A DNA stretch of 64,000 bases. It comes from Verrucomicrobiota bacterium. GTDB taxonomy: Bacteria; Verrucomicrobiota; Verrucomicrobiia; Palsa-1439. The stretch spans positions 133 through 64,132 of the forward strand of contig VHCW01000016.1 in the NCBI GenBank assembly GCA_016871575.1, written 5' to 3'. The stretch's first letter is position 1. Each line of letters starts with the position of its first letter. Positions 1 through 63,617 of the stretch are shown here, piece by piece. The notes under the pieces were generated by a model, which did not search any database, was not told the DNA's origin, and saw nothing but the letters and a program-made list of their open reading frames with translations. The position numbers and the translations under genes are program-made.

Positions 1-1410
1 CAACTGGTGGAGCAAATTGCCGGATCTGCTTTCGCAGGAACAACAAATGCGTGCTCGTTGACAAGTGATGCCGCGACGACGCTGGTTTTCCAATGGTTGG
101 TTGCGGATACCAACACCACGGTTCGCTTGACCGATCCGCTGGGCGTGGTGATTGACGCGAGCACGCCGGCCGTGAACTCCAATGTGCAATACTCGGCGAC
201 CGTTGTGGCGAGCAATCTGTTGGTGGCCAGCTTCACCATCGCGAGTCCCACGGCGGGAGTCTGGACAGCGGTGTTGGACGCCAGCAGTATGACGGCGACG
301 GAAGCCGCTTACACATTGACGGTGCAGGGCGATTCGCCGGTGACGCTGGTGCCGCAGACCGGACCGCTGTTCAATGGCGGACAGGATGTGGTGGTGACGT
401 GTCAACTGGCGGACTTGAGCGCGGATCCGGTTGGCGCGGTGACGAATGCCGCGTTGACAGCGATGGTTTTGTTGCCGAACGGGACGACGAACAACCTGAC
501 GTTGTTCGACAACGGCTGGCACAACGACGGCGCGCCGAATGACGGGGTGTATGCGGCGGTGTTGGCCAACGTGCAATTGCCGGGTGAGTATGCCATCACC
601 TACCGGGCCTATGGCACGAACAGCGCCGGGCAAGCGTTCCAACGGGTGGCCACGGGCGTGTTCAGCGTGGCGACCGGGAACGGCGGCATCTTTGGCGACC
701 CGGTCTATGAGAGCGTGGACACGGATGGCGACGGCTACGCGGATGTCCTGATTGTCAAAGTGTGGGTCAACGTGGCGGCGGCGGGCGATTATGTGTTGTC
801 GGGGCAGTTGGTGGACGCGATGGGGTTGAACCGGTATGCGCAGTCGGCGCAGTTTGCCGCCGCAGCGGCGGGGCCGATGCAGGTGTCGTTGATCTTCGAT
901 CTGGCGGAAATCCGCGCCAAGAGCGGGCAGGGCGATTATCACATCGAGAGCCTGCAACTGTTCGAGACCGGGGCGACGGTAAGCGGCTGGCTGGATGCCT
1001 ACCGGGGTGTGTCGTCGCTTACGTTGCCGGCTGCCAATCCCGTGCGGGCGTGGCTGGCTGGGTTTGGGTTGCCGTCGGACGGCAGCGCGGACTTCGCCGA
1101 TTCCGATGGCGATGGCCACAACAACACGCAGGAATACTGGGCCGGCACCAATCCGACAGACCCGACAAGCCGGTTGCAGGTCACAACGACCGCACCGGCA
1201 GCGGGTGGCGGTTTCACGATCACGTGGCAGAGCGTGCCCGGCAAGACTTACAAGGTGGTTTATGCTGAGAATCCCGGTGGCCCGTGGGAGGAGGACTTGC
1301 CGGATTCGCAAATCACGGCGCAAACGGGTGAAACTTCGCTCTCTTACACTGATACGACTGTTGGCAATGCAACCAAGCGGTTCTACCGGATCAAGTTGAT
1401 TGTGCCGTAG
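1..1410 (+). CDS. 3'-part of a large exported protein (5'-truncated by window edge) with Ca-binding-like DxDxDG motifs (DTDGDGYADV, DSDGDGHNNTQEYW: thrombospondin-type-3/dockerin-like)
   Basis: Frame is open to base 1. High GC3 coding bias. Asp-rich calcium-binding-like motifs near the C-terminus. Stop codon at 1408-1410. Confidence 0.6.
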   Translation, partial: QLVEQIAGSAFAGTTNACSLTSDAATTLVFQWLVADTNTTVRLTDPLGVVIDASTPAVNSNVQYSATVVASNLLVASFTIASPTAGVWTAVLDASSMTATEAAYTLTVQGDSPVTLVPQTGPLFNGGQDVVVTCQLADLSADPVGAVTNAALTAMVLLPNGTTNNLTLFDNGWHNDGAPNDGVYAAVLANVQLPGEYAITYRAYGTNSAGQAFQRVATGVFSVATGNGGIFGDPVYESVDTDGDGYADVLIVKVWVNVAAAGDYVLSGQLVDAMGLNRYAQSAQFAAAAAGPMQVSLIFDLAEIRAKSGQGDYHIESLQLFETGATVSGWLDAYRGVSSLTLPAANPVRAWLAGFGLPSDGSADFADSDGDGHNNTQEYWAGTNPTDPTSRLQVTTTAPAAGGGFTITWQSVPGKTYKVVYAENPGGPWEEDLPDSQITAQTGETSLSYTDTTVGNATKRFYRIKLIVP

Positions 1411-8212: not shown

Positions 8213-8559
8213 CAAGGGCGTGACAGTAGCAGGAACGGCAACACAGTGCAAACCCGTTTGGTGATCCCGTTGGTGAACGGATTTCGTTTCAAGGGCATCG
8301 CCTTCGTCTCTTGAACTCCGTCAAACTTGAATGGAAGGGCACGTTTCTAGTAACGCACGCAGTCCCGTGTCGTTTCGGGACGGAGTGCGAATCGTTTGGA
8401 CGGAACGATCTCGCGCAACCCCACTTCGCTTCGCTGCGTGGCTCACTACGAACTACCCTTTGGATGTGGTTTGATGGAGCACGCTCGCCGGTATTCTGGT
8501 CTTGCCTTGTCACCGCGATAGACGGTATTCTGAGCACACAAACAAACAGGAGGCATTCC

Positions 8560-9363
8560 ATGAAATGTCAGGTTTCTGCTGCTGTTCGCGGTATGTTGTT
8601 GTTGGTCGTGTTTGCCGTTGCGGTGAGTTGTGGGAAATCGCAATCTTCCGGCAGTCCCACTGCGCAAGGCAATCTCGCCGTGGACCTCGGCGGCGGGGTG
8701 ACGATGGACTTCGTGCTCATCCGTCCCGGCAACTTCACGATGGGGTCGGACAAGGGAAGCAGCGACGAAAAGCCGGCGCGCAAGGTGACAATCACCAAAC
8801 CGTTTTATCTCGGCAAGTTTGAGGTCACGCAGGAGCAGTGGCAGGCCGTGATGGGCAGCAATCCCAGCAACTTCAAGGGCGCGAAGAATCCGGTTGACAC
8901 TGTAAATTGGGAGGATTGCCTGACGTTCGTGCGGAAACTGGGCGAGAAAGTGCCGGGGTACACGTTCCGGTTGCCGACGGAAGCGGAATGGGAATACGCC
9001 TGCCGCGCCGGCAGCAGCAGCGAGTATTGCTATGGCGATGATACCGGTGGGTTGGGCGACTACGCTTGGTACAGCAATAACTCCGGCAGCAAGACGCATA
9101 CGGTCGGTGAGAAAAAACCGAATACGTGGGGACTCTATGACATGCACGGTAACGTCTATGAATGGTGTCAGGATTGGTATGGAAACTATTCCACCAACGC
9201 GGAGACCGATCCGGTCGGGCCGTCTTCCGGGTCGAACCGTGTGTTGCGCGGCGGTTCATGGAGCCGCAATGCCTCGACTTGCCGGTCGGCAATCCGTTAC
9301 AACTTCAACCCGTCGAATCGCTTCTACATCTACGGGTTGCGGGTTGTGGTGGTCGTGCGCTGA
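8560..9363 (+). CDS. DGR target (variable) protein: lipoprotein with an FGE-sulfatase / C-type-lectin-fold domain; VR at the C-terminus
   Basis: RBS AGGAGG 6 nt upstream of the 8560 ATG. Lipobox AVSC/G. FGE-sulfatase hallmarks ([47 protein letters not shown]). The last ~45 codons are the VR. Confidence 0.85.
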   Translation: MKCQVSAAVRGMLLLVVFAVAVSCGKSQSSGSPTAQGNLAVDLGGGVTMDFVLIRPGNFTMGSDKGSSDEKPARKVTITKPFYLGKFEVTQEQWQAVMGSNPSNFKGAKNPVDTVNWEDCLTFVRKLGEKVPGYTFRLPTEAEWEYACRAGSSSEYCYGDDTGGLGDYAWYSNNSGSKTHTVGEKKPNTWGLYDMHGNVYEWCQDWYGNYSTNAETDPVGPSSGSNRVLRGGSWSRNASTCRSAIRYNFNPSNRFYIYGLRVVVVVR

Positions 9364-9412: not shown

Positions 9413-9517
9413 CCGGCTGCAAAATTTATGAAAGCAACCACAAAGCGGGAGCAAGCTCCCGCACTCCATATTTGGAGTGCGGCGACTCGTCGCCGCTTTG
9501 CCGTTCTCTGACCGCAA

Positions 9518-51583: not shown

Positions 51584-53308
51584 GTGTCCAAACGCTGGCT
51601 TATCGCGCAAGCGGAACCAGCCGTGGCCGGGGCGCTTGCCCGGAGCCTTGACTTGCCGTTGGCGTTGGCGCAAACGCTGTTGAACCGCGGTTGCCGTGAC
51701 GCCGAGGCCGCGAAGCATTTCCTGCAACCGCAACTCCGTCAGCTTGCCGACCCGTTCGCGTTGCCCGACATGGCCGCCGCCGTCGAGCGGATCCAGACGG
51801 CGCTCGCGCACCGTGAACGCATCGTCATCTACGGCGATTACGACGTGGATGGAGTCACCGCCAGCGCGCTCCTCACGCGTGTCCTCCGCGCCGCCGGTGG
51901 CGATGTCGCCAATTTCCTCCCGCACCGGATGGACGAGGGCTACGGCCTCAGCGTGGACGGCGTTGCCCGGTGTGTCCGTGAGCGCGCTCCGCAACTGCTC
52001 ATCGCCGTTGACTGCGGCACCAGTTCCCCACAAGAGATTGCCAACCTCAAATCGGAAGGCATTGACACCATCGTCATCGACCACCATGAGCCGCCAGTGG
52101 AATTGCCGCAATGCGTCGCGCTGGTGAATCCGAAAGTGGGACAACCGTCCCGGTTGTCCTCGGCAACGGAACGGGTGGACAACCGGGACGGTTGTCCCAC
52201 GTATTTGGCGAGCGTCGGCGTCGCCTTCAAACTGGCGCACGCGCTCCTCAAATCGAACCGTCACTGGGACATTGACCTTCGCGAGCATCTTGACCTTGTT
52301 GCGCTCGGCACGGTCGCCGATGTTGTTCCTCTCACCGGCGAAAACCGCATCCTCGTCAAAGCCGGGTTGGAACGGATCTCGTGCACAAAAAAAACCGGTC
52401 TGCGCGCGTTGATGGAAATCGCCAAGGTGCCGGATCAGGTTACGCCCTACCACATCGGCTTCCGTCTTGGGCCGCGCTTGAACGCGGCGGGGCGGCTCGC
52501 CGACGCGATGGCATCGCTCGAACTCTTGCTGACGAACGACGACGGTCGCGCCGCCGAACTGGCGGGGTTGCTTCACGAGCACAACGCCCATCGCCAGCAA
52601 ATCGAGGAACAGATTGTCACGCAGGCGCTCGCGCAAGCCCGCGAACAATCCGGGGCGCTTGTGTTGGTGCTCTCAAACCCCGACTGGCACACCGGCGTCA
52701 TCGGCATCGTTGCCTCGCGTGTGCTTCAGGAGTTTTACCGTCCGACCGTCATCATCGGCGCCGACGGCAAAGGCTCCTGCCGCAGCATTGCCGGTTTTTC
52801 GATGGTGGCGGCGTTGTCGGAATGCGCGCCGTTGCTGGTCCGTTTTGGTGGCCACGAGATGGCAGCGGGACTGACGGTGTCTCCGGAGAATGTTCCGGCG
52901 TTGTTCCGCCAACTGAACGAGGTTGCCGCGCAGAAGTTATCGGGGCAACTCCTGACGCCTCCGGTTGCGATTGACGCGGTGGTGCGGTTGTCTGACCTGG
53001 ACGCGGAGTTTTTCGGGGCGCTGGAGCAATTCGAGCCATGCGGCGCTGAGAACCCGACGCCGGTCTTTGCCGTTCGCAATGTCGTGGTGCGCGGCGCGCC
53101 GCGCGTGTTGAAGAAGAAGCACCTGAAGTTCTCGGTGACCGATGGCGAGATGACGGCATCGGCGATCTGGTTCAGCGCAGGGGAGGCGGTCTTGCCGTCG
53201 GGTGTGATGGATGTGGCGTTCACGGCGGAGTTGGACGACTTCCGCGGGGAACCGACAGTGCAGTTGCGTGTGCGGGATATACGGGTGTCCGAGTCAGGGA
53301 ATGCCTGA
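51584..53308 (+). CDS. recJ: Single-stranded-DNA-specific exonuclease RecJ
   Basis: DHH motifs (IYGDYDVDGVTA, DHH at VIDHHEP) and DHHA1 region. Confidence 0.9.
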   Translation: MSKRWLIAQAEPAVAGALARSLDLPLALAQTLLNRGCRDAEAAKHFLQPQLRQLADPFALPDMAAAVERIQTALAHRERIVIYGDYDVDGVTASALLTRVLRAAGGDVANFLPHRMDEGYGLSVDGVARCVRERAPQLLIAVDCGTSSPQEIANLKSEGIDTIVIDHHEPPVELPQCVALVNPKVGQPSRLSSATERVDNRDGCPTYLASVGVAFKLAHALLKSNRHWDIDLREHLDLVALGTVADVVPLTGENRILVKAGLERISCTKKTGLRALMEIAKVPDQVTPYHIGFRLGPRLNAAGRLADAMASLELLLTNDDGRAAELAGLLHEHNAHRQQIEEQIVTQALAQAREQSGALVLVLSNPDWHTGVIGIVASRVLQEFYRPTVIIGADGKGSCRSIAGFSMVAALSECAPLLVRFGGHEMAAGLTVSPENVPALFRQLNEVAAQKLSGQLLTPPVAIDAVVRLSDLDAEFFGALEQFEPCGAENPTPVFAVRNVVVRGAPRVLKKKHLKFSVTDGEMTASAIWFSAGEAVLPSGVMDVAFTAELDDFRGEPTVQLRVRDIRVSESGNA

Positions 53309-58436: not shown

Positions 58437-60740
58437 CTAGTTGAACGGCAGAAACTTGACGCAGACGGCGGCGCCGACTTCGATGCTTTGGCCGGTAGGT
58501 GTCAGTTTGCCGGTTGCGGTGTCCAGACGGAAGACGACGACGTTGTCGGAGTTCTGGTGGGCGGCGAGCAGCCACTTGCCAGTCGGGTCGAGGTTGAAGT
58601 TGCGGGGCATGTTGCCGAGCGTCGGCGCGTGTTGCACGGGCGTCAACTTGCCGGTTGAGGCGTCAATCTTGAACACAGCGATGGTGTCGTGACCGCGGTT
58701 GGAGCCGTACAGGAATTTGCCGTTCGGATGCACCAGTACCTCGGCGGTGCTGAAGCCTTGTTGCACCGTTTCGCCGGCGGGCAGCGTCGTGATTGTCTGC
58801 GTCTCGCTGAGCGCGCCGCGTTTGGCGTCGTATCGGAACGCGGTCACGGTGCAGAGCATCTCGTTGATGACGTAAGCGAATTTGCCGTTCGGATGAAACG
58901 CGAGATGACGCGGCCCCGATCCGGGCGCGAGAGTGGCAAACGCCGGGTTGTTGGGGGTCAACGTGCCTTTCGTGGCGTTGAACTGGTAGATCATCACCTT
59001 GTCGAGGCCGAGGTCGGACACGAAGGCAAACCGGTTGGCGGCATCGAGAAAGATCGAGTGCGCGTGCGGTCCCTGCTGCCGTTTCAGGTTCACGCTGGAA
59101 CCGACGTGTTGCACGAACGCCGAGGCTTCGCGGAGACGTCCGTCGGTCTCGATGGGCAACACGGCCACGCTGCCGCCGGCATAGTTGGCGACGAGCGCGT
59201 GCTTGCCGGTCTTGTCCACGTTGACGTGGCACGGCCCGGCGCCCACTGTTGATTGTTGGTTCAGGAGGGTGAGTTTGCCGGACGATTCGATGGCGAATGC
59301 GCTGACAGCGCCGCCTTTTTGTCCTGATAATTCGCCGACAGCGTACAGGAACTTTCGGCTCGGATGAATGGCGACGAACGACGGGTTGGTCGTTTCCGCC
59401 GCCAGTTCCGGCGCGCCGAGTTGGCCGGTCTCGGTGTTGAAAATCGAGCGGTAAATTCCCTTGCTCTTGCCGGTCCGCGTGTACGTGCCGAAGTACACGG
59501 CATAACTTCTCTTGAAATGACGGTCTGCAAACATGATGTACTGTCTCCAATCATACTCCGTGATGTTGTGTTTGCCTTCGCGGCAATGGTAGCCAATCGT
59601 CCGCCCGACCGGAGTGTTCACGGGCGGCATTTCCGTTGCACCGAATCCATCCGTTCCCAACAGCCGATACACCGGGTCGGCGTGCCGGCAGGCCAGAAAC
59701 TCACCTTTCGGGTCAGCCCACGAATCCTCCGACGCGCTCGCCACATAAACGGGGCGGGGCGCGCTCAACGCCACCAGCATGTGGGCGTCCACCGGCAGAT
59801 CGTTCTCCCGGTCGTTGTAGTTCTTGAAGTTGGCGCAGAACCAGTGGGGAAAATTCTTGTTGATCAACGCGATGGTCTCCCCGAAACAACGGCGCGTGAT
59901 GGCCGCGCCGCCTTCGCCGGAGTTGTTGGAGATGACCACGGCAAACCGCTCGTCCTGCGCACCGGCCCAGAGCGCGGTCTTGCCGAGGCGAGAGTGGCCG
60001 ACGACCGCCACGTGACGCGCGTCCACCGCAGTGTCTTTCTCCAGGCAATCGAGGGCGCGGCTCAAACTCCACGCCCATGCGCCAATGCAACCCCAGTCAC
60101 CGGGATAGACCGCGCGAATGCCGTGTTTCCAGCCTTCCGCGTAATCCGGCTCGACATCGGCGCGGGAGATCGTTGCGACGCCGTAGCCGCTTGCCAGAAG
60201 CATCTCGATGGGCCAGCGGTCTGCGCTGGAGCCGCGCGTCTCTTCGCCGGGACGGACGAGTTCTTCCTTGTTTGTCTTTTTGTCCCAAGTCCACTGCTCG
60301 CGAATCGGGATGCCGGGGTCGGCCGAGACAGTGTGATTGCCCGGAAAGTTCATGCTCAGAAACATCGGCACTGGCCGAGTGATGTGGTTGGGCAGATACA
60401 CGAGCAAATCCATTCCCCACGCGCCGTTGGCAGTCGAGAGCCGGTACAATTTGCGTGTCGCCTTGCCGCCAAGCGCTTGTTTATCGCTGGAAACCAGAAT
60501 GGATTTCAGGGGCGGAATCTTCGGGGCGCGGCCAAAAACGTGGGTGCGGTACAATTCGAGGATTTCCGCGCGGCGTTGTCGCTGCCATTGTCCGGCGGTG
60601 GTCACTTTTGTGCCGTCGCACATCACGAGCGGGTCCGGCAACGTGTAGGCCGGCACTTTCGATTCGTCGGTCATGGAGCGCGGCGGTGATTGCGCAGCGA
60701 TACTCAGGGCGGCGAGGGCAAGCAAACATCGTTTCATCAT
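58437..60740 (-). CDS. Exported fusion: CE15-like glucuronoyl esterase domain (GHSRLGK nucleophile motif) plus C-terminal 7-bladed beta-propeller lactonase (6-phosphogluconolactonase/3-carboxymuconate-cyclase-like) domain
   Basis: Signal peptide; VAVVGHSRLGKTALWAGAQDERFAVV matches the CE15 G-C/H-S-R-x-G motif; the C-terminal ~350 aa have lactonase-propeller repeats. Confidence 0.6.
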   Translation of the reverse strand: MMKRCLLALAALSIAAQSPPRSMTDESKVPAYTLPDPLVMCDGTKVTTAGQWQRQRRAEILELYRTHVFGRAPKIPPLKSILVSSDKQALGGKATRKLYRLSTANGAWGMDLLVYLPNHITRPVPMFLSMNFPGNHTVSADPGIPIREQWTWDKKTNKEELVRPGEETRGSSADRWPIEMLLASGYGVATISRADVEPDYAEGWKHGIRAVYPGDWGCIGAWAWSLSRALDCLEKDTAVDARHVAVVGHSRLGKTALWAGAQDERFAVVISNNSGEGGAAITRRCFGETIALINKNFPHWFCANFKNYNDRENDLPVDAHMLVALSAPRPVYVASASEDSWADPKGEFLACRHADPVYRLLGTDGFGATEMPPVNTPVGRTIGYHCREGKHNITEYDWRQYIMFADRHFKRSYAVYFGTYTRTGKSKGIYRSIFNTETGQLGAPELAAETTNPSFVAIHPSRKFLYAVGELSGQKGGAVSAFAIESSGKLTLLNQQSTVGAGPCHVNVDKTGKHALVANYAGGSVAVLPIETDGRLREASAFVQHVGSSVNLKRQQGPHAHSIFLDAANRFAFVSDLGLDKVMIYQFNATKGTLTPNNPAFATLAPGSGPRHLAFHPNGKFAYVINEMLCTVTAFRYDAKRGALSETQTITTLPAGETVQQGFSTAEVLVHPNGKFLYGSNRGHDTIAVFKIDASTGKLTPVQHAPTLGNMPRNFNLDPTGKWLLAAHQNSDNVVVFRLDTATGKLTPTGQSIEVGAAVCVKFLPFN

Positions 60741-60800
60741 CGGTTCTCCGTCACGTTCATACTATTGCGACGCTTGGGATGCAAGCGCGCTCAACGCGCG

Positions 60801-60920
60801 GGTGCAGTTCGAAGTTTTGGGCAACCGCTCAATGTGGAGCAGGTTTGCAACCTGCTCTTCAATGACAACCTGGCAGGTTACAAACCTGCCCCACATTCCT
60901 GCCCAAAAGATTGAACTGCA
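60801..60920. repeat. Large imperfect palindrome (two ~55-bp arms around an 11-bp centre) in the spacer between two co-oriented genes
   Basis: Left arm GTGCAGTTCGAAGTTTTGGGCAA...GCAGGTTTGCAACCTGC; right arm is its near reverse complement. Each arm also contains its own sub-hairpin. Confidence 0.5.
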
Positions 60921-60921
60921 C

Positions 60922-63403
60922 CTCAACGGGCCAGCGTGTTGAAATCGCTCCATGCCGGGACACCCCATTTCGGGCGGACAATTTCTCCGCGCGCCTGTTT
61001 CTCGATGTCGCTATAGGCGCCGTAGAAGTTGCTGTTGCAATCGAGCCAGAGTGTGACGCGCCGCATTTGTTCCGGTGTCAGCTTCACGTTGTGGTGGCCC
61101 TTCGTGAGCATCACATAGAGACTGGACGCTTTGGCGCCGACTTTGCCGGGAACCGAGTACTGCGGTTCTTTCAATGCGATTCCGTTCCCGCCGCTCATGC
61201 CCCATGCCCGGCTGCGCAGCGTATGGAACGCATCCGACCATCCGTGCTTGTCAAAGCGGTCGCCGCGAAGGCTTGGCGCAGTGGTGGCGTTCTTGTCGTG
61301 GCAGGGGACGCATTTGGCAGTCAGCACCGGTTGGACCAGGCGCGGGAAGGTGAGCGGGTAGGAGCCGGTCGGTCCGGGCTGGAGTTTCGAGGGGGGACGG
61401 TTCATGGCCAGCGGGCGTTCGCTTTCGGGGCGGTTGAAGGAAGTGTGCTTGGGTTCGTGGCATCCGACGCAGGTGAGTGTTTCGCCCGGATGCAGGTAGG
61501 TGGACGAGCGCATGGTCTGGACGGCGAGGCCGTTTTCGTCGAGCGCCTGGAAATAGATCGGGGCGCCAGTGGGGACTTCGAAATAGGCGCTGCCGTCAGC
61601 TTCCACCGGCGCCGTGCCGAGAACGCCGCGGGCCAGCGATTGGGAGGCGACGCCAATGTTGGGTTGGTTGGCGACGGAGTTCTCCTTGGCGAAAAGGTTG
61701 ATCACGCGGAGCGCCTTGATTTTTGTTCCGGCCGGCCAAGGGTGGTAGCTTTCATAGACGTTCATCACCATGACGGTGCCGGTGGACAGGTCGGCATCGG
61801 CGGGCCGGTCGGCTTTTGCCTGGATGGTTTTGATGGGCAGCACCGGCGGGCGCACGCGCGGCTTCAGCGGAATCGGATCGAGACAGGCGATCTTGTCGTC
61901 GCGATAGAGCAGTTCGCGGTTGCCAAAGCTATCGAGCAGATAAATCCCGTAGTTCTTCTTGTCCGGGTCATAGACGACCAGATGGAAGTCTTCGTTGATC
62001 GGCCAGGGGGTGCCGTACACTTCGGCGTTGGGAGAGTGCTTGCCTTTTGCGTGTGGCACACCGGGGGCGGACTCTGATTCGGCGAAGGGAACTTCGGGCG
62101 TGAGGCGCTTGATTTGGCTGGTCGCGCGGTCGTCCTTCTCGCGCAGGTCAATCAACACCAGCGTGCCATACGCCTCGCCGTGGTGCGCGCCGGTCACGGC
62201 GATGTATTTTGGAGAGTGTGGCACGGCGCGAATGGACATTTCCATCCACGGACGCATCTCGCGGCGGTCCGGATAGTTGCCGTGATAACTGCGCGGGTCG
62301 CGTCCGTCTGGATAACAATGCCAGATGTGATGCGCCACGTCCGAATCGCGATCCACGTAGTCCCATCGCGTATAGACGATCATTCCGTTGTGGTCCACGC
62401 TGGGGTGCCATTCGTTCGTGTCGTGGTAGCTGAGCGTAATGATGTCGCTGCCGTCCGGCTGCATCGCGTGGAGCGTGTACGTGGGGTCGGGGCGGAACCC
62501 GCAACGGAGTTGTCCGCCGATCCGCGTCGAGATGAAAACGATGCGCCCATTGGGCAGGAAACAAGGATCGAAATCATTGTACGGCCCGTCGGTCAATTGC
62601 GTCAGCCCGGAGCCGTTCACGTCCATCTTGAACAAGTGATAACAGGTCTCCGGGCGGAAATGATAGAAGGCATGTTTCGGATCCCGTTTCGCATCGGCTT
62701 CCGACCAGACATTCGGATCGTACGTCATTCCCGGTGGCAACTCATGCTCTGCCTCGGTGAATGCGAACAACAGCGTGCGCGCATCGTAGTCGAGTTCCAG
62801 CGCGATGAACCCGCCTTGATCTTCGAGCGAGCGTCCCCTGAGCCGTCCGTTGGCGACGGGTGTGTTGGCTGTCAGGCTGCGCACGGTCGGACGGTCGCTG
62901 AACGGCTTCTCCAGCACAAAAACGCCACCGGCTTTCTCGGCGGTGAATCCGAAATACTGGTCCACCATGTGACGGTCACCGCGGACCTGTTTGTTGTGCT
63001 TGAGGAACACAATCTTGTCGAAGTCGAGCAACGGATTCTTGAATGCGATCCGGCGGCGCAACGCCAGAATCTTGTCGAACCCCTCGCGTGACGCTGTTGC
63101 TGATTTCAGCGCATCGAGTTCCTGTTGCTCCGCCGACAAATCCGGGGCGCGTTCCATTGTCTTGAGGTGACGCAACAATGCCGCCGTGCGCCGCCATGCG
63201 ATATCGCCCGGTGTGCGGTCGGTTGGCAGGATCAGCGCGTCTGGTCGCAACGCTTCCTTGGCGAGACGTTGTTGGTTCCACTTCGCGCTTTGCTTGATCT
63301 CGTTTTCCAGCAAGGCAAACTCATCCGCCCAGCCGCTGGCTGTCAGCAAGAACAACAGGAATACAATGGAACAGACTCTTGTCATTGAAACGCGTGAAAC
63401 CAT
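60922..63403 (-). CDS. Exported beta-propeller protein with C-terminal di-heme c-type cytochrome module (two CxxCH sites; Planctomycete-cytochrome-like)
   Basis: Signal peptide MTRVCSIVFLLFLLTASGWA; TolB-like propeller repeats; CVGCH and CVPCH near the C-terminus. Start at MVSRVS with GAAGG 9 nt upstream. Confidence 0.65.
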
Positions 63404-63511
63404 ATCAGAAGCCTTCGACGCCGGCGAGGTGAAACCCTTCAAGCAGACTGCCCCGAAATCCGTACAATGTTCTGTAGCCGCAACAACGCGCAAGAGGGCG
63501 CGAAGACGCGA

Positions 63512-63536
63512 AGGATGGAACCACGGAATAGACGGA
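63512..63536 (-). promoter_or_regulatory. 9-bp-phased heptad triplet (TTCCGTG-like x3 on the coding strand) 108 bp upstream of the 63403 start; second copy at 63739-63763, degenerate copy at 63589-63613
   Basis: CACGGAA / GACGGAA / CACGGAT at 63512, 63521, 63530. A direct ~45-bp repeat (about 80% identical) at 63496-63545 and 63723-63770 carries the two clean triplets. Confidence 0.4.
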
Positions 63537-63617
63537 AGACACGGATGGGACGAACACCGAAGGCGCGAAGGCAATTAGCCACAAAGAACACGAAAGCACA
63601 CAAAAAACGGAAACATC

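Follow-up and report, generated by a model that had tools for sequence, protein, structure and literature searches.

A 122-bp palindrome between two genes of a Verrucomicrobiota bacterium: a probable ISKra4-family miniature element enclosing a GTGG-tagged REP dimer

Introduction

Two kinds of bacterial repeats are the closest described relatives of the element discussed here, an imperfect palindrome of 122 bp that separates two genes in a stretch of 64,000 nucleotides (the window) of contig VHCW01000016.1, from the Verrucomicrobiota assembly GCA_016871575.1. The first kind is given by the insertion sequences (ISs) grouped as p-MULT elements, whose inverted repeats measure 18–39 bp and have a C at the terminus, the direct repeats being 8 or 9 bp long (Guerillot et al., 2014; PMC3942029). 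The ISMich2 group has two open reading frames (ORFs) joined by a -1 frameshift, and the ISKra4 group inserts 13–17 bp from sigma-A promoters, as TnGBS does; TnGBS and ISLre2 (p-MULT 3) insert 15–17 bp upstream of the -35 region of sigma-A promoters (PMC3942029).

The second kind is formed by the GTAG-tagged repetitive extragenic palindromes (REPs), short stem-loops that carry a GTAG tag, are frequently arranged as head-to-head dimers and heterodimers, and are present in the Planctomycetes-Verrucomicrobia-Chlamydiae superphylum (Di Nocera et al., 2013; PMC3733652). In Opitutus terrae the majority tag of the GTAG-20 family is GTGG, and intragenic REP dimers occur in DNA-repair genes; in A. variabilis and H. 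neapolitanus REP dimers are nested in longer palindromes, an arrangement that was left unexplained (PMC3733652). REP doublets have also been described as REPINs (Bertels and Rainey, 2011, as cited in PMC3733652).

Both kinds appear to meet in the palindrome of the window, which is very probably a miniature inverted-repeat transposable element (MITE) of an ISKra4-family (p-MULT 4) IS that encloses a GTGG-tagged REP dimer and was inserted next to a promoter. It is ordinary selfish DNA and no purpose-built regulatory device. Since the MITE and the inner REP dimer are both of known kinds, the window element is a further member of these and not a surprising one.

Geometry and folding of the palindrome

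The palindrome is non-coding and occupies positions 60801–60922 of the window (122–123 bp if position 60800 is counted). Its outer arms (60801–60823 and 60900–60922) are 23 nt long and 87% complementary, and its inner arms (60831–60855 and 60873–60897) are 25 nt long and 92% complementary, with 17 nt between them. The arms are imperfect and show, relative to each other, a 5-nt indel (ACCGCTC vs a CC/GG linker). The original prediction, made from the letters of the sequence, had described a palindrome of about 120 bp with near-perfect arms around an 11-bp centre; the palindrome is there, whereas the centre measures 17 nt and the arms are imperfect and differ by the indel. It had also attributed to each arm a perfect sub-hairpin of its own, and both were found, one in each inner arm, with 7-bp stems (GCAGGTT-TGC-AACCTGC and GCAGGTT-ACA-AACCTGC); they are separate and widespread GTGG-tagged REP units, as described below. 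The motif GCAGGTT-NNN-AACCTGC occurs twice in the window, against 0.02 occurrences expected by chance.

Folding of both strands, which the original prediction had called for, gave -77.8 kcal/mol for the minus strand (z = -7.3) and -74.5 kcal/mol for the plus strand (z = -8.4), and none of 200 shuffled sequences folded as well. The long hairpin is the thermodynamic optimum of the window sequence, at -73 kcal/mol vs -59 kcal/mol for the form with two sub-hairpins. The window is identical in three JGI samples. Short-read assemblies are interrupted by the palindrome: two Logan contigs of this locus (L124 and L125; L numbers designate loci throughout) both stop within it, at ...AATGTGGAGC, a point that lies 100 bp upstream of the downstream gene.

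The outer arms as ends of an insertion sequence

The outer arms of the palindrome are the terminal inverted repeats (TIRs) of an IS family. The promoter-side TIR, (G)GGTGCAGTTCGAAGTTTTGGGCA (60800–60823), agrees at 23 of 23 positions with the TIR at the left end of the full-length ISs of L142 and L145. The stop-codon-side TIR (60900–60922) has the reverse complement GGTGCAGTTCAATCTTTTGGGCA; the MITEs of L131, L141 and L127 have TIRs of the same AATC variant. The consensus of the TIR family is nGGGTGCAGTTCnAAnTTTTGGGCAG; it can also be given as nGGGTGCAGTTC..GGGCAG, with ends that read ...GCACC(C). As a side observation, the left and right ends of the full-length IS differ at one position (GGGCA vs GGTCA), and this asymmetry is kept in the MITEs of L131, L139 and L141, whereas both ends of the window copy read GGGCA.

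When metagenomes were scanned with the outer arm (query GGTGCAGTTCNANNTTTTGGGCA), 21 loci were found, so that the arm does recur in other metagenome contigs, as the search proposed in the original prediction was meant to establish. In four of these loci the outer-arm sequence, inverted, bounds a unit of 1,445–1,446 bp, namely L136 (1743–3187), L142 (1870–3315), L144 (268–1713) and L145 (861–2306). These are full-length ISs, in all of which a 107-aa ORF1 overlaps ORF2 in the -1 frame. A run of seven A, a slippery sequence, is conserved at the overlap in the four copies, and a -1 shift at that point would give a fused protein of 448 aa; the two-ORF frameshift layout of the ISMich2 group is therefore present here. 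The ORF2 products of the four ISs are at least 80% identical (tblastn). In the two full-length copies that were scanned, which are relatives of the window element and not the window element itself, ORF2 matches the NCBIfam model NF033572 (ISKra4 family transposase) with 215.4 bits (L136) and 212.9 bits (L145), the cutoff being 205; Pfam returned only a weak UPF0236 match.

Metagenomes abound in relatives of this transposase, most of which are located on orphan contigs of 1.4–2 kb; for one relative, from a metagenome-assembled genome (MAG) of the Verrucomicrobiae, the NCBI annotation is ISKra4-family transposase. With the plasmid-borne proteins that are annotated as members of this family, the transposase shares only approximately 26% identity. 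Among all plasmid matches the closest (41% identity) is an unannotated two-ORF pair on a plasmid of Opitutaceae TAV5, around which no clear terminal repeats were found.

The same ends are found in around a dozen loci on elements of 112–224 bp that have no transposase gene, and they adjoin unrelated genes in unrelated metagenomes. The palindrome of the window shares several defining features of a MITE: it has 122–123 bp and no transposase coding sequence, its TIRs match those of an IS, it is bordered by a 9-bp duplication, and copies of it lie at unrelated loci. A MITE-like insertion was among the three readings offered by the original prediction, and this one is supported.

Target duplication and insertion next to promoters

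The element is bordered by two copies of a 9-bp target-site duplication, TCAACGCGC (60791–60799), which abuts the element, and TCAACGGGC (60923–60931), identical to the first at 8 of 9 positions. The upstream gene, which encodes a PD40/HZS_alpha-domain protein (60923–63574, minus strand), ends within the second copy, of which positions 60923–60925 are its TGA stop codon; because the stop codon lies inside the duplication, the reading frame of this gene was left untouched by the insertion. The downstream gene, which encodes a glucuronyl esterase plus a 7-bladed lactonase (58437–60740), is also on the minus strand, so that the two neighbours are co-oriented, as had been predicted. Read on the minus strand, the element follows directly after the TGA (60925–60923) and ends 60 bp ahead of the ATG at 60740; the gap of about 60 bp before the next start was thus correct in the original prediction, while the 2 bp that it placed between the upstream stop codon and the element do not exist.

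Direct repeats of 9 bp abut 8 of the 12 short elements (8 of 11 if the duplicate contigs L143 and L146 are counted once). Five of these duplications are perfect (L131, L137, L138, L141 and L143/146) and three match at 8 of 9 positions (L127, L130 and the window element). In addition, 33 flanks of 20 elements were read outward from the ends in search of promoter-like spacing. The triplet TTG occurs at offset 17 in nine of the 33 flanks, at offset 16 in two and at offset 18 in one, against approximately 0.7 per offset elsewhere, and arrangements of the type TTGnnn-16..18-TAnnnN are restricted to offsets 13–18, where the promoter calls are consensus matches only. In the window, the distance from the end of the element to TTGCAT is 16 nt, which falls in the reported range of 13–17 bp. 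The window element and its related copies show the promoter-proximal targeting that has been published for the ISKra4 group.

The putative -35 hexamer of the downstream gene, TTGCAT (60779–60784, minus), is followed after a 17-nt spacer by a putative -10 hexamer, TATGAA (60756–60761, minus), 15 nt ahead of the ATG; the 16 nt mentioned above are counted to the element end at 60801. The esterase/lactonase gene is taken to have TTGCAT-17-TATGAA as its native promoter, a reading of the sequence adopted because the same arrangement, with another spacer sequence, precedes an 81%-identical homologue in L151, a locus with a different upstream neighbour and no element. As an observation apart, a small perfect hairpin, GCGCG-TTGAG-CGCGC (minus), lies at 60785–60799 directly before the -35 hexamer and is made of the promoter-side duplication copy plus native sequence; the lone mismatch between the duplication copies is what makes its stem perfect.

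These observations allow a sequence of events to be proposed. The transposase of a full-length copy, acting in trans, would bind both ends of the unit and integrate it through a 9-bp staggered cut, some 13–17 bp upstream of the -35 box of a sigma-70-type promoter, which is the reported behaviour of this transposase group, the target in this case being the promoter of the esterase/lactonase gene. Before the insertion the stop codon would have been located about 7 nt from the -35 box, and the junction would have read ...GCCCGTTGA-GCGCGC-TTGCAT.... The position of the element between a stop and a start would then be due to the target choice of the transposase, and, because the promoter began about 7 bp past the preceding stop codon, the palindrome would fill the space between them without damage to either. 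If it is transcribed together with the upstream gene, the element would make a very stable 3' hairpin, of whose selection there is no sign; it may, as a side effect, stabilise the 3' end or act as a barrier to read-through.

The interior: a GTGG-tagged REP dimer

The central ~70 bp of the palindrome are not derived from the IS; they are a REP dimer of the GTAG REP superfamily. Unit 1 (60834–60857, plus strand) consists of a GTGG tag (60834–60837) and the hairpin GAGCAGGTT-TGC-AACCTGCTC. Unit 2 (60872–60894, minus strand) reads GTGG-GGCAGGTT-TGT-AACCTGCC on its own strand and GGCAGGTT-ACA-AACCTGCC followed by CCAC on the plus strand. The spacer between the two units (60858–60871) is the centre of the palindrome. 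The units, of 24 and 23 nt, form a head-to-head dimer with the tags facing outward, and their slightly different stems make it a heterodimer.

A scan of GTDB, with one genome per species, for the core GTGGRGCAGGTTNNNAACCTGC found at least 120 genome loci, against roughly 10 expected by chance (an estimate from the size of the database). Among the matches listed, most of the loci belong to Bryobacterales or other Acidobacteriota and to Planctomycetota, a few belong to Verrucomicrobiota, and several MAGs have 5–7 matches each. The window has only one dimer of this family. The usual layout is GTGGGGCAGGTTnnnAACCTGCC, a spacer and then GGCAGGTTnnnAACCTGCCCCAC, although single hairpins are also found. 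Dimers that lack the outer arms are frequent, and among the matches listed the one most similar to the window core lies in another Verrucomicrobiota MAG (L068, 82% identity over 73 nt). A search of the literature for the core sequence gave only unrelated primer and aptamer matches. REP families are usually lineage-specific, and it is unusual for different phyla to share a single REP core. In this regard, it was also observed that the 22-nt REP core GTGGGGCAGGTTnnnAACCTGC is common to Acidobacteriota (Bryobacterales), Planctomycetota and Verrucomicrobiota, the loops being characteristic of the phylum (GGT/GCC vs TTC/TCC/TGC), and that in Bryobacterales the core opens four-hairpin modules that close with GCAGGAT-nnn-ATCCTGC-CCCAC.

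The genome loci contain 68 dimers, in which the first half is fixed by the search pattern and the second half is unconstrained. Changes in the stem of this second half are compensated in 32 cases and broken in 20, with 4 wobble pairs; the compensated ones affect several positions and include GCAGGAT/ATCCTGC, GCACGTT/AACGTGC and GCAGATT/AATCTGC. Since compensation takes place within each sub-hairpin, it is the sub-hairpins and not the long hairpin that are kept, and the long hairpin was rejected as a conserved structure even though it is favoured thermodynamically. Templated correction of quasi-palindromes could also produce such a pattern without selection.

Other hairpins of this type are present in the window. 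A palindrome with perfect 24-nt arms, GTGGGACAACCGTCCCGGTTGTCC-17 nt-GGACAACCGGGACGGTTGTCCCAC (52136–52200), is a head-to-head GTGG-tagged REP dimer located in frame inside the recJ ORF (51584–53308, plus strand; DHH domain), where it encodes about VGQPSRLSSATERVDNRDGCPT; the solved RecJ structures that were aligned have a gap of at least 10 residues at its position. A double-hairpin palindrome (9436–9505), CAAAGCGGGAGC-AA-GCTCCCGCACTCCA TATT TGGAGTGCGGCGAC-TC-GTCGCCGCTTTG, follows the ORF at 8311–9363 (plus); its stems differ (GCGGGAGC vs GCGGCGAC) and each is self-complementary, which gives a REP-like heterodimer with no obvious GTAG tag. Finally, a single tagged hairpin (1419–1445), GTGG-ACGGCTC-GGTG-AGCCGTC-CCTAC, begins 9 nt past the stop codon of the ORF at 7–1410 (plus) and is a REP-like singleton.

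Sister elements and the nesting of repeats

Only one of the sister elements, L127, has the same interior as the window element. This second copy, whose locus is unrelated, comes from a metagenome in which the window contig is present as well. It differs from the window element at 10 of 122 positions: five in one end, four in the central stretch 60856–60872, one in a linker and none in the REP units. The five substitutions in its outer arm are uncompensated. Other elements (L126, L128–L131, L137–L139, L141 and L143) combine the same ends with other interiors, which are mostly hairpin pairs again, many with GTAG or GTGG tags. The interior of L139 is GTAG-GCCGACTC...GTCTCGGC-CTAC; those of L130, L128 and L143 have GTAG-GACAACC... 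and ...AGCTTGTCC-TAC; and those of L126, L129 and L137 are tail-to-tail pairs. At least four REP families are therefore enclosed by the same ends in different metagenomes, represented by the window element with L127, by L139, by L130 with L128 and L143, and by L126 with L129 and L137. In L130 and L126, bare copies of the enclosed REPs are present at a distance of a few kb, and the GGACAACC hairpin is also found bare in the window itself, inside recJ. A separate observation concerns L128 (1398–1621) and L143 (132–310), in which a palindrome of about 60 nt is nested in the loop of a GGACAACC/GGTTGTCC REP hairpin, in a hairpin-in-hairpin type of growth; L128 also has a tandem duplication of the other REP unit.

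Resident REP dimers have thus repeatedly come to lie between the ends of this IS. This can be extended, tentatively and with more doubt than confidence, to a recurrent chimera in which Mutator-like DDE IS ends time and again enclose whichever GT(A/G)G-tagged REP dimers reside in the host. Two routes are possible. The extruded centre of an end-to-end palindrome may be a preferred landing site for REPs or, by analogy with the Pack-MULEs of plants, the MITE may capture hairpins of the host. By either route, REP dimers would gain a second, DDE-driven way of spreading, aimed at promoter-proximal sites, and the idea could account for the REP dimers found within long palindromes of A. variabilis and H. 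neapolitanus (PMC3733652).

Alternative explanations

Could the whole palindrome be a REPIN, that is, a REP doublet moved by a REP-associated tyrosine transposase (RAYT, an HUH/Y1 enzyme), with the outer arms as an extended part of the REP? The inner arms do form a head-to-head GTGG-tagged dimer, as in REPINs and bacterial interspersed mosaic elements (PMC3733652), and bare dimers of the same family abound, as in L068. The outer arm, however, is absent from all of the 120 REP-bearing genome loci listed, even when up to 5 mismatches are allowed, and in four loci it bounds a DDE transposase gene instead. The element also has a 9-bp target duplication and, to our knowledge, IS200/IS605-type Y1 enzymes make none. 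A crude screen for HUH plus Y..NP motifs found no RAYT in the window or in the 120 loci listed (8 kb or less each), and the ORFs between inverted REPs in L029 and L017 were seen on inspection not to be RAYTs. Such an origin for the whole palindrome is very unlikely. Also unlikely, to a somewhat lesser degree, is that the host has selected the palindrome as an RNA element, either an oversized terminator or a structure that stabilises the upstream mRNA at its 3' end and insulates the promoter that follows, with the transposon features as something secondary. This would agree with the exact placement between stop codon and promoter, with a predicted transcript fold of about -73 kcal/mol, with the proposal that REPs act in termination and mRNA stabilisation (PMC3733652), and with the fact that the REP units are unchanged between the window and L127 while 10 substitutions fell elsewhere. 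Nevertheless, the stem is followed by CGCGCGTTGAGC, which has no T/U tract, no terminator-like site was called in 60650–61000, and no Rfam family was assigned, so that neither the structured RNA nor the small RNA or processing site that had been suggested at first finds backing. The five uncompensated changes of L127 indicate that the long stem is not maintained, and the position is fully explained by a transposase target preference that is seen at many unrelated loci.

As a third alternative, the palindrome might be a small-RNA gene in its own right, or a cruciform to which a protein binds and which serves as an operator of the downstream enzyme gene. All that speaks for it is how strongly both strands fold, to which must be opposed that no promoter-like site lies inside or faces the element, that no terminator follows it, that the same ends stand beside unrelated genes in unrelated metagenomes, and that the interiors of the sister elements are entirely different sequences. 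A permissive Rfam scan of 60000–61700 returned only miRNA-hairpin models, with 15–23 bits vs gathering scores of 45–100. The cruciform regulatory site of the original prediction is likewise unsupported, given that the decayed arm of L127 shows a long stem that is not conserved as a structure, and a regulatory gene or operator at this place is extremely improbable. The reading of the palindrome as an ISKra4-family MITE with an enclosed REP dimer has several points to answer as well. No full-length IS or transposase was found in the window by tblastn with the IS ORFs. Promoter targeting has been published for the ISKra4 group and the frameshift layout for the ISMich2 group, and the placement of this IS follows those descriptions and not a phylogeny. 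The target duplication of the window element has one mismatch, and three of the four full-length ISs with readable flanks show no clear duplication. The promoter hexamers are weak (7 of 12 positions vs the E. coli consensus) and a strict scan of 60650–61000 called no promoter; the case for the promoter is thus built on the positional enrichment in the flanks, together with the conservation in L151. Lastly, no empty site was found, since the homologues of the downstream gene (P0002, P0004, P0005, P0008 and P0009, with 74–83% identity) are not syntenic and have other neighbours.

Comparison with known systems

For annotation purposes, what looked like an odd giant terminator becomes a recognisable mobile element. 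Its features (GGGTGCAGTTCnAAnTTTTGGGCA ends, a 9-bp duplication and a position 16–17 bp upstream of a -35 box) constitute a usable signature for this MITE/IS family in Verrucomicrobia and in other environmental genomes. The insertion preference is moreover a free promoter marker, one that points to TTGCAT-17-TATGAA in a phylum whose promoters are poorly charted. The nesting of REP dimers in DDE-type ends and the occurrence of a single core in three phyla offer modest clues to the spread of REPs.

The element is like the members of the ISKra4 family, or p-MULT 4 (Guerillot et al., 2014; PMC3942029), in its TIRs of 23–24 bp ending in C, its 9-bp repeats, the NF033572-matching transposase that full-length copies carry between these ends, and its insertion 16–17 bp upstream of -35-like hexamers. 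Unlike an IS of that family, the window copy lacks a transposase and has an interior that does not consist of IS sequence. The IS to which it belongs joins the frameshift layout of the ISMich2 group, present in four copies, with a promoter targeting described only for the ISKra4 group. No paper in the literature searched mentions MITEs together with two or more of ISKra4, ISMich2 and ISAzba1. TnGBS and ISLre2 share with it an insertion position upstream of the -35 region that spares both neighbouring genes; unlike the window element, they belong to a different transposase family, are autonomous and are much larger.

The interior, with two GTGG-tagged stem-loops of 23–24 nt, tags on the outside and a short spacer, is like the GTAG REP dimers (Di Nocera et al., 2013; PMC3733652). 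It departs from the reports on those REPs in that the enclosing palindrome can be identified here as DDE-type IS ends with target duplications, and in that the crude screen found no RAYT; and it departs from the usual REP families in that its 22-nt core is common to three phyla.

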